Sequence record: MW822008.1 | Reading direction: 5' to 3' (one strand) | DNA: 64,000 nt | Source of the DNA: Escherichia phage BF17 | Shown: positions 9,937-60,674 of the stretch, in pieces | Layout of the letters: each line of letters opens with the position of its first letter | How positions within the stretch are numbered: the first letter of the stretch is position 1 | Notes under the pieces: generated by a model | Told to the model about the DNA's origin: nothing | The model's database searches: none | Seen by the model: only the letters and a program-made list of their open reading frames with translations | Translations under genes and position numbers: made by a program

Positions 9937-10131
9937 GTTTCACTATGGGGAATGTACCAGGCACGGTGTATGTAGATGATGCTGAGTTGAAAGAAAGCTT
10001 CAAAAACTTATCGCATCTTGAACCACAATACGCACATGAAATGAATTTATTTTGAGTTGACAAACTCATTCAGTACTGTATAATGTTTATCAAGGGGATG
10101 AACTTCTCATCCCCACAATCGAGGAATTGTC

Positions 10132-46850: not shown

Positions 46851-47092
46851 GCAGTTTACAAATCTTTACAATTGCCGGTATTGACTTATTTTGTCAGTAC
46901 TGGCATAATGTATTCATTGGCAGATAAGCCGTAGCCCATAGGGTGCGGGAGTGTATCTATAGAAAAAGTAGTTTATTACAGTTACAATTGTGCACCCGGT
47001 GGGTTAGCTGTTGTCATGGGGTATATTATGCCAGTACTTGATAATGCTGTCAATACTTTTTTTACTATTCAGTACTGAAAACTATTTTTAAA

Positions 47093-54238: not shown

Positions 54239-54300
54239 TTTGACAATAGATTATAGTACTGTATAATAAGTTACATCAAGGGGAGAATAGTTCTCCCCAC
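54239..54300 (+). promoter_or_regulatory. sigma70-like promoter with leader hairpin
   Basis: TTGACA-17-TATAAT; hairpin GGGGAGAATAGTTCTCCCC. Confidence 0.6.
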
Positions 54301-55338: not shown

Positions 55339-55669
55339 TCTATTGACAATATCCTCCAGTACTGGCATAATACTTACATCAAGACGAGAACGTCACTAAC
55401 CCATAGGGTGCACAAATGTAACTGTATAATATTGATCAAAAAATGATCTGATCAATACTTGATCAATTTGCGTAAAGTAGTATAATTCTATGCAGTTGGT
55501 TAGACGAAAGGTTATGATTAGTAGTGCAAGTGTATAAAAATTTTCATGGTGTATCGTTCCGCACATATGGCAATGAATATGTGGTATCATGTGGATTGGA
55601 AAAAGTAAGAACAAGTAATATTATTGTCGCATTACAGTACTATAGTATTTTTATAATGAGGTTAAAATA

Positions 55670-55927
55670 ATGGCTGTAGGATTCGCGAAAGATGGGGCCG
55701 AACAAGACGAGATTAACGCAGTGATTCAGGCCGCCGTTAACCACGCTAGAAAGCAAATTAACGCACAAATAGAATCACTGATACATTGCCTCGACTGCGG
55801 CGATATAATCCCTGAGAAACGACGCCAGGCCGTTAAGGGATGTAAGTACTGCATAACTTGCCAGGAGGATCATGATAGTACTTTTAAACGTCCCCCGCGT
55901 AATTGTTGGCATAGATCTATGAGATAA
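55670..55927 (+). CDS. TraR/DksA-family C4 zinc-finger protein
   Basis: 85 aa; C-x2-C...C-x2-C in HCLDCGDIIPEKRRQAVKGCKYCITCQE. Confidence 0.65.
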   Translation: MAVGFAKDGAEQDEINAVIQAAVNHARKQINAQIESLIHCLDCGDIIPEKRRQAVKGCKYCITCQEDHDSTFKRPPRNCWHRSMR

Positions 55928-55933
55928 AAAGTA

Positions 55934-55990
55934 TTGACAGTACTATCCAGTAGTGTTATAGTACTTACATCAAGGGGAAACATCTTCCCC
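55934..55990 (+). promoter_or_regulatory. sigma70-like promoter with leader hairpin
   Basis: TTGACAGTACTATCCAGTAGTG TTATAGT; hairpin GGGGAAACATCTTCCCC. Confidence 0.5.
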
Positions 55991-56224: not shown

Positions 56225-56548
56225 ATGTACATTCATACTACTATCACAAAGGAAGTCCGTTGCCAGTTCGAAAGTATTCCGGGCGTATGTTTCATCACTG
56301 GTACGTTTTCCCCTGGTGATCGTGATAATCCAGTACTGTTACAATTACGCCATCCATCATGGGATAAAGCATTTGATCTACCGTTGAATGAATTCGCAAC
56401 TACTGCTGAAAAGTACATTAAAAATATTCGCGAGAATGATCGACTATTCATTAATGCTTTCAGTGATTCCGCGTTAAGCGAGATCCACAGCGTATTGGTT
56501 GCAATCATGGAATCAATGGAGAAAACTAAATTCAAACAAGGTGAATAA
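56225..56548 (+). CDS. hypothetical protein
   Basis: 107-aa ORF, GAGGA upstream. Confidence 0.55.
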   Translation: MYIHTTITKEVRCQFESIPGVCFITGTFSPGDRDNPVLLQLRHPSWDKAFDLPLNEFATTAEKYIKNIRENDRLFINAFSDSALSEIHSVLVAIMESMEKTKFKQGE

Positions 56549-60573: not shown

Positions 60574-60674
60574 CTTTGCTATTATATATTCATTGAGAGA
60601 TAGCTCACTGACCCACAGGGTGCATAAATGTATCTATTATATAAGTATTCAGTACTGAAAACTATTTTTAAAAA

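Follow-up and report, generated by a model that had tools for sequence, protein, structure and literature searches.

The F-plasmid protein TraR contacts RNA polymerase (RNAP) through three parts. Its N-terminal helix (residues 2-27) brings a DxxDxA tip into the active site, with S2 located 4.3 Å from the Mg; within the zinc-binding globule, R48 and R49 touch the β′ rim helices and Si3, and the C-terminal helix (residues 58-73) touches Si1 of β (PMC9239242; Chen et al. 2019, PMC6970531). Gopalkrishnan et al. (2022; PMC9239242) called the DxxDxA motif critical. Their study covered five TraR homologues from phages, lambda Orf73, P2 Orf82, VHML Orf8, VP882 Orf61 and X. bovienii Gp34, all of which bound RNAP and inhibited rRNA and ribosomal protein (r-protein) promoters, and the two with an incomplete DxxDxA motif were still active, albeit less so; members of the C4 zinc-finger family do not all act like DksA (PMC9239242). 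The TraR protein of VP882 acts in complex with QisA and needs its RNAP-binding motif to do so. DksA has 151 aa, carries DxxDxA at the tip of a coiled coil and needs ppGpp.

Escherichia coli YbiI is a further relative, encoded by a chromosomal, sigma-S-dependent gene. Rescue of dksA auxotrophy by highly expressed YbiI has been mentioned as data not shown (PMC2613031). This single remark was all that a literature search yielded on experiments with YbiI, with DksA-like proteins of lytic or jumbo phages or on transcription in Asteriusvirus.

Gene organization and conservation

A TraR/DksA-like zinc-finger protein had been predicted from the sequence of Escherichia phage BF17 (sequence record MW822008.1). 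The gene was analysed within a stretch of 64,000 nucleotides of this phage, referred to as the window. The following features were identified at and upstream of the gene:

55433..55464, no strand assigned: four GATC sites (three TGATCA palindromes and one TGATCT) covering the -35 element of the promoter at 55459 and the sequence immediately before it
55459..55486, plus strand: putative sigma-70-like promoter TTGATC-16-TATAAT (10/12 consensus match), the nearest upstream of the two-gene unit
55524..55670, plus strand: 48-aa ORF with GTG start, PHROG 38664 (function unknown), 121Q gp293
55658-55661, plus strand: Shine-Dalgarno sequence GAGG, 8 nt 5' of the zinc-finger ATG, by direct sequence reading
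55670..55927, plus strand: zinc-finger CDS of 85 aa with ATG start (ORF list, Pfam PF01258, PHROG 54, structures 2KGO/5W1S/6N57, identity to E9.1)

The zinc-finger ORF translates into MAVGFAKDGAEQDEINAVIQAAVNHARKQINAQIESLIHCLDCGDIIPEKRRQAVKGCKYCITCQEDHDSTFKRPPRNCWHRSMR. Its ATG overlaps the TAA stop codon of the 48-aa ORF within the sequence TAATG, so that translational coupling of the two genes is likely, and the product of the coupled 48-aa ORF may therefore be a partner protein. The C-terminus of this conserved small protein is hydrophobic (IIVALQYYSIFIMRLK).

About 3 kb around the gene were 97-98% identical to the Asteriusvirus phages PBECO4, 121Q, G17, E9.1 and CRJP21 and to isolates of Salmonella phage SD. 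The orthologues (in 121Q, E9.1, PBECO4, SD-1_S14 and others) are located at an equal position and share the upstream 48-aa ORF. Protein identity was 100% to vB_EcoM_E9.1 (XDC03261, "DksA-like zinc-finger protein") and to SD-1_S14, and seven residues were different in 121Q gp294 ("C-4 type zinc finger protein"). The family assignment was already known from GenBank relatives, where an identical protein carries such an annotation. In E9.1 and 121Q, the zinc-finger gene is followed by an acetyltransferase cassette, whereas the BF17 window lacks it. Comparison of window positions 55944-55948 with positions 5783-6202 of L001 showed that this cassette of about 420 bp is precisely missing and that the junction lies within a repeated AGTACTG promoter sequence, which suggests that the cassette may have been gained or lost by recombination between repeated promoters. 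All neighbouring genes belong to families of unknown function (PHROGs, Pfam), the only match being DUF7247 for 56225-56548.

Beyond Asteriusvirus, a tblastn search identified homologues in 652 phage records, including T4-like genera (65-75% identity, same termini), and 580 clusters were obtained at E <= 0.001 in a search of 1.84 billion representatives. In the T4-like phages, the gene is located downstream of tk and an antiholin gene amid small early-type genes. A bacterial YbiI-like homologue was flanked by a gene for a chorismate-binding (trpE-like) protein and selO, followed at the same locus by GATase, glycosyl-transferase family 3 and IGPS genes, which we read as trpG/D/C-like. This bacterial context is uninformative on function.

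The possibility that 55670..55927 lacks a function, being open by chance or left over from a decaying gene, was considered highly improbable, even though truncated copies of the gene occur in other phages such as JN02. At >=80% identity, the full-length gene was retained in no fewer than 33 Asteriusvirus-like records, many T4-like phages carry it at 65-75% identity with invariant termini, and both a Shine-Dalgarno sequence and a putative promoter are in place. Compared to phage 121Q, 13 codons differed synonymously and seven non-synonymously; this excess of synonymous changes is consistent with purifying selection. The gene has a GC content of 46.5% compared to 36.1% for the window, ranking third among the 138 plus-strand ORFs at about 2 SD above the ORF mean. 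Its high GC may reflect horizontal origin or amino-acid composition. The latter may be sufficient as an explanation, since the deviation is only about 2 SD and the T4-like homologues are similarly biased (44-45% versus 39%). The ORF is a real gene, presumably an early one, of a jumbo coliphage of the genus Asteriusvirus.

Putative promoters and regulatory elements

Stronger promoters than that at 55459 were found at 55343 and, past the zinc-finger gene, at 55934. Over the whole window, promoters matching at least 11 of the 12 sigma-70 consensus positions numbered 31 on the plus strand versus 6 on the minus strand, and most of them have a TG-extended -10 element and an AT-rich discriminator. 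Judged from the consensus matches, this set is the putative signature of early transcription units that depend on the host RNAP. Open complexes at such promoters are stable, and they are not of the kind that is inhibited by DksA, ppGpp and TraR. We infer that the phage consensus promoters would escape inhibition by DksA/TraR-like factors.

The GATC cluster at 55433-55464 is the sole run of at least three GATC sites within 40 bp in the window, in which GATC is rarer than expected (127 observed versus 212 expected). In phage 121Q, this promoter is surrounded by three TGATCAA-like sites that are arranged differently. The cluster could be a candidate Dam/SeqA or repressor site.

Several repeated elements were observed elsewhere in the window. 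Promoter modules with the stereotyped layout TTGACA-n8-AGTACTGTATAATA..TTACATCAA occur between 49300 and 63000 (e.g., at 54240, 55934, 56555, 57865, 58134 and 60987) and at 10057. Directly after each module come a G/C-rich hairpin (GGGGAGAA...TTCTCCCC, -10 to -15 kcal/mol) and a ribosome binding site, in this order; a hairpin at the extreme 5' end of early transcripts might serve mRNA stabilization or regulation. A second promoter class consists of six near-identical copies of TTGACTTCGGTCAGCCCTTTTTGCTATAAT on the plus strand within the first 16 kb (972, 4566, 7609, 12081, 12664 and 15424), in which the -35 hexamer is located inside a TGAC-TTCG-GTCA mini-hairpin. Finally, a 25-nt repeat, CTAACCCAyAGGGTGCAcAAATGTA, with an internal ACCC/GGGT hairpin was found at 55396-55420 and 60608-60632 on the plus strand and at 46983-47007 on the minus strand, where 0 copies were expected by chance. 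The copies are situated behind strong promoters, where no ORF is obvious, and the repeat may be transcribed as a short non-coding RNA or be a terminator-like element.

The protein belongs to the YbiI-like branch of the TraR/DksA family

The original prediction had assigned the 85-aa protein to the TraR/DksA family because of a C-x2-C ... C-x2-C arrangement in its C-terminal half. Such paired motifs are present (C40-x2-C43 and C58-x2-C61-x2-C64), and profile searches for the DksA/TraR C4 zinc finger returned significant matches. Residues 39-68 matched Pfam PF01258 (zf-dskA_traR) with 41.2 bits (E 1.6e-10), exceeding the gathering threshold of 24.9 bits, and PHROG 54 ("DksA-like zinc-finger protein") was matched with E 1.1e-18. 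The best NCBIfam model was NF008243, the YbiI-type DksA/TraR equivalog (E 4.8e-23), with a score of 81.4 bits that falls short of the curated cut-off of 96 bits; in this alignment, residues 1-72 corresponded to profile positions 1-71 of 88, and the tail was different. The score for TIGR02419 (C4_traR_proteo, the phage/conjugal plasmid TraR subfamily) was 52.5 bits, also under the cut-off of 59.7. Among the PDB sequences, E. coli YbiI (2KGO) was matched with E 2e-12 and F-plasmid TraR in complex with RNAP (5W1S, 6N57) with E 1e-5.

A TraR-type profile was also compared directly. By hhalign, it aligned to the profile of the phage clade with 99.7% probability across residues 16-78, and as an HMM built without this clade it recovered the zinc-finger ORF with E 1.2e-24 as the sole match among all six-frame ORFs of the window. 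No paralogue of the gene was found in the window with two HMMs.

Thus, the 85-aa protein was confirmed as a C4 zinc-finger protein of the TraR/DksA family that belongs to the YbiI-like rather than the TraR branch; YbiI and RNAP-bound TraR were closest both in sequence and in predicted fold. YbiI is the closest solved relative (about 39% identity; aligned from residue 1 to 74), sharing with the phage protein the MAxG[FW]AxD.A N-terminus, the helix length, IPxxRR and CxxC-x17-CxxC, whereas its tail reads NRRGSKDSQLR as compared to RNCWHRSMR in the phage protein. F-plasmid TraR resembles the latter in size, three-part architecture, zinc ligands, the equivalents of I44, P45, E46, R48 and R49, and predicted fold (TM about 0.6). 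In contrast to TraR, however, the phage protein has no DxxDxA tip, an N-terminus that is three residues longer and a shorter C-terminal helix followed by a basic 14-residue tail that TraR lacks, and the identity is about 28%. The likeness to DksA consists of the shared Pfam zinc-finger domain and a weak fold match to the RNAP-bound protein (7KHI, 5VSW); the coiled coil of DksA is absent from the phage protein.

Zinc finger, RNAP-contact residues and predicted structure

Within the protein, four regions were distinguished:

55670..55705, plus strand: N-terminal motif MAVGFAKDGAEQ (codons 1-12), in the place of the DxxDxA tip of TraR, from alignments
55685..55762, plus strand: predicted N-terminal helix, residues 6-31, from the AlphaFold model
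55787..55861, plus strand: zinc-finger core C40-x2-C43-x17-C61-x2-C64 including IPExRR, from invariant columns and the HMMER alignment to TraR
55883..55924, plus strand: basic C-terminal tail FKRPPRNCWHRSMR (residues 72-85), conserved in the phage clade and predicted to be disordered

C40, C43, C61 and C64 were invariant among 57 homologues and are the counterparts of C37, C40, C58 and C61 of TraR. By alignment, the zinc ligands would therefore be these four cysteines in a CxxC-x17-CxxC arrangement. The alternative pairing of C58-x2-C61 as second zinc knuckle was rejected, since C58 varies with Val in homologues and aligns to V55 of TraR, whereas C61 and C64 are invariant. A Cys at the position of C58 is likewise carried by many phage TraR-type proteins. 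In the HMMER alignment, I47, P48, E49, R51 and R52 corresponded to I44, P45, E46, R48 and R49 of TraR. Among the 57 homologues, I47, R51, R52 and G57 were invariant and P48 and E49 occurred in at least 90%; these conserved globule residues map to conserved columns of the TraR-type proteins (I44, P45, R48 and G54). The alignments show that the IPExRR residues, which in TraR form the contacts to the β′ rim helices and β′Si3, are conserved in the phage protein.

A match of residues 59-85 to PHROG 25948 was considered as a possible fused second domain and was rejected. The Mosigvirus JN02 sequence (L003) contains at 1390-1581 an unannotated 63-aa ORF ending in CVGCQSMRDEIFKREPRNCWHRSMR, in which an unrelated N-terminus precedes what is left of the zinc-finger gene, its C-terminal half, so that the ORF is a remnant. 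Remnants of this kind account for the separate PHROG 25948.

The AlphaFold model, computed from an alignment of 57 sequences with medium confidence (pLDDT 73), consisted of a helix at residues 6-31, a zinc knuckle, a helix at residues 62-71 and a disordered tail. The predicted N-terminal helix comprises 26 residues and is thus equal in length to helix 2-27 of TraR (boundaries from PMC6970531). The predicted C-terminal helix compares to residues 58-73 in TraR and is followed by the Pro-containing tail. The best Foldseek matches of the model in the PDB were 2KGO, followed by 6N57_M and 5W1S_M and then DksA 7KHI; for 6N57_M and 5W1S_M the probability was 1.00 with TM 0.54-0.64 and an rmsd of 3.5-4.1 Å. 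The model thus shows a predicted TraR-like three-part architecture of a long N-terminal helix, a zinc-knuckle globule and a short C-terminal helix.

The termini differ from those of TraR

The N-terminal motif was near-invariant across the phage clade and close to the N-terminus of bacterial YbiI-like proteins, MAGG[FW]AKDGAVQDQID. A strict DxxDxA motif was absent from residues 1-39 by MAFFT alignment with TraR, by profile-profile alignment and by regular expression combined with the distance to the zinc finger, and hhalign left residues 1-15 unaligned to the tip of the TraR-type profile. The spacing from M1 to C40 is 39, and measured from the zinc finger the N-terminus extends three residues beyond that of TraR. 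D8 and A10 precede the first Cys by 32 and 30 residues, distances that overlap those at which TraR-type proteins have the second Asp and the Ala of their DxxDxA motif. These distances make the motif readable as [FW]xxDxA. This reading of the YbiI-type motif is a conjecture from spacing, and we do not claim equivalence to DxxDxA.

A YbiI-type N-terminus occurred in 108 of the 150 representatives listed, and a strict DxxDxA motif was present in 6 and lacking in 102 of these. Among YbiI-type representatives with zinc finger, 80 of 93 combined MAxG[FW]AxDGA with a Met-to-Cys1 spacing of 38-39, a combination that is our own description rather than a curated definition. In the 20 listed representatives with DxxDxA and without a YbiI-type N-terminus, the first Asp was mostly located 31-39 residues before the first Cys, as compared to 34 in TraR.

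At the other end, the tail of the phage clade has the consensus FKRxPRNCWHRSMR, and the 85-aa protein ends in RNCWHRSMR. This tail is related to the YbiI tail [YF]NRRGSKDSQLR via intermediates such as P0065 (...HNRKVWHRSMR). A third sub-class of small zinc-finger proteins, distinct from both the TraR and the YbiI types, was also observed, with the N-terminus MSGY(G/A)GPDDE... and the C-terminus ...K(M/T)LT(K/Y)ML (P0070, P0096, P0098, P0112, P0123, P0138, P0139, P0143, P0147 and P0197). What is mildly new is that, as indicated by these terminal motifs, virulent jumbo and T4-like phages carry an uncharacterised YbiI-type branch with termini of its own, and not the TraR type.

Possible function

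Based on the predicted fold, the conserved contact residues and the precedent of described homologues, the 85-aa protein most likely is made early, binds in the secondary channel of E. coli RNAP and, without ppGpp, redirects initiation at the expense of rRNA and r-protein promoters, which we consider probable; the reported rescue of dksA auxotrophy by YbiI also counts in favour. In this sequence of events, the host RNAP would transcribe the zinc-finger gene soon after infection, and the protein would dock at the secondary channel of the E. coli enzyme, its N-terminal helix directed to the active site. There it would alter initiation kinetics independently of ppGpp, as do TraR and lambda Orf73, so that host promoters whose open complexes are short-lived (rRNA, r-protein) would be depressed, and phage promoters with consensus elements, extended -10 and AT-rich discriminator would be spared. 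By the precedent of the five active phage homologues, it was reasonable to suggest, as had been done earlier, a reprogramming of host transcription by a phage copy. Like the BF17 protein, these homologues are small, phage-encoded members of the TraR/DksA family expressed with early or lytic genes; however, they come from temperate phages or prophages and are of the TraR type with at least partial DxxDxA, whereas BF17 is a virulent jumbo phage with a YbiI-type protein. As the phage protein is of the YbiI-like branch and without DxxDxA, we can only infer a TraR-like effect for it. In addition to the missing motif, the sub-threshold scores for NF008243 and TIGR02419, the short C-terminal helix, the longer N-terminus and the existence of C4 family members that do not act like DksA count against TraR-like action. 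Given G-F-A-K-D-G-A in place of x-D-x-x-D-x-A and the basic tail, the strength or detail of the action may differ from that of TraR.

These differences could also indicate that the protein binds the channel without acting like TraR, either as a passive competitor, keeping out DksA, GreA and GreB, or with its (M)AVGF peptide plugging the catalytic centre, resulting in a general shut-off of host RNAP. The contact residues of the globule are conserved while the tip is different, and the N-terminus extends three residues beyond that of TraR, whose tip already lies 4.3 Å from the Mg. Invariance of the first 12 residues speaks for a precise molecular contact, and a precedent exists in channel binders that do not regulate, such as Rnk. 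We regard either of these outcomes as unlikely, as the reported rescue of dksA auxotrophy by YbiI implies both positive and negative regulation in the manner of DksA and not blockage, and general inhibition of RNAP by a plug would also silence the phage's own sigma-70 promoters. A main action away from RNAP was rated about as unlikely. The protein might bind nucleic acids via the basic tail, serve as a partner-dependent adaptor or have a metal-related role, as was reportedly once suggested for YbiI. Some C4-finger family members are without DksA-like activity, the Arg/His/Cys-rich tail is conserved and absent from TraR, and the coupled 48-aa ORF offers a possible partner, reminiscent of VP882 TraR, which works together with QisA. 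However, even the VP882 complex needs the RNAP-binding motif of TraR, the nearest neighbours in structure and sequence are all binders of the RNAP secondary channel, and the RNAP-contacting pair R51 and R52 is invariant.

A more far-reaching reading is speculative and in our view doubtful. YbiI-type proteins, those of the phage clade included, might be mechanistically distinct secondary-channel effectors, with an invariant (M)A-x-G-[FW]-A-K-D-G-A tip reaching 3-5 residues deeper than that of TraR, into the catalytic centre, and a co-evolving basic tail, [RN]..R..[LM]R-COOH, placed on another RNAP element or nucleic acid. If so, virulent jumbo and T4-like phages would have taken over from bacteria a stationary-phase factor that switches host transcription more strongly or in a qualitatively different way, and the paired terminal motifs (of TraR, of YbiI and of the third type, MSGYGGPDDE...KMLTKML) would mark different modes of action.

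The family annotation itself is routine, correct and already present in GenBank relatives. Small RNAP-channel binders that are independent of ppGpp allow mobile elements to divert host resources without a stringent response, which has so far been demonstrated for TraR and its homologues from temperate phages only. This picture of resource diversion agrees with the presence of a copy in a virulent phage of 350 kb that depends on dozens of consensus sigma-70 promoters, and the phage protein would be a convenient test case for the YbiI branch, including ybiI of E. coli.
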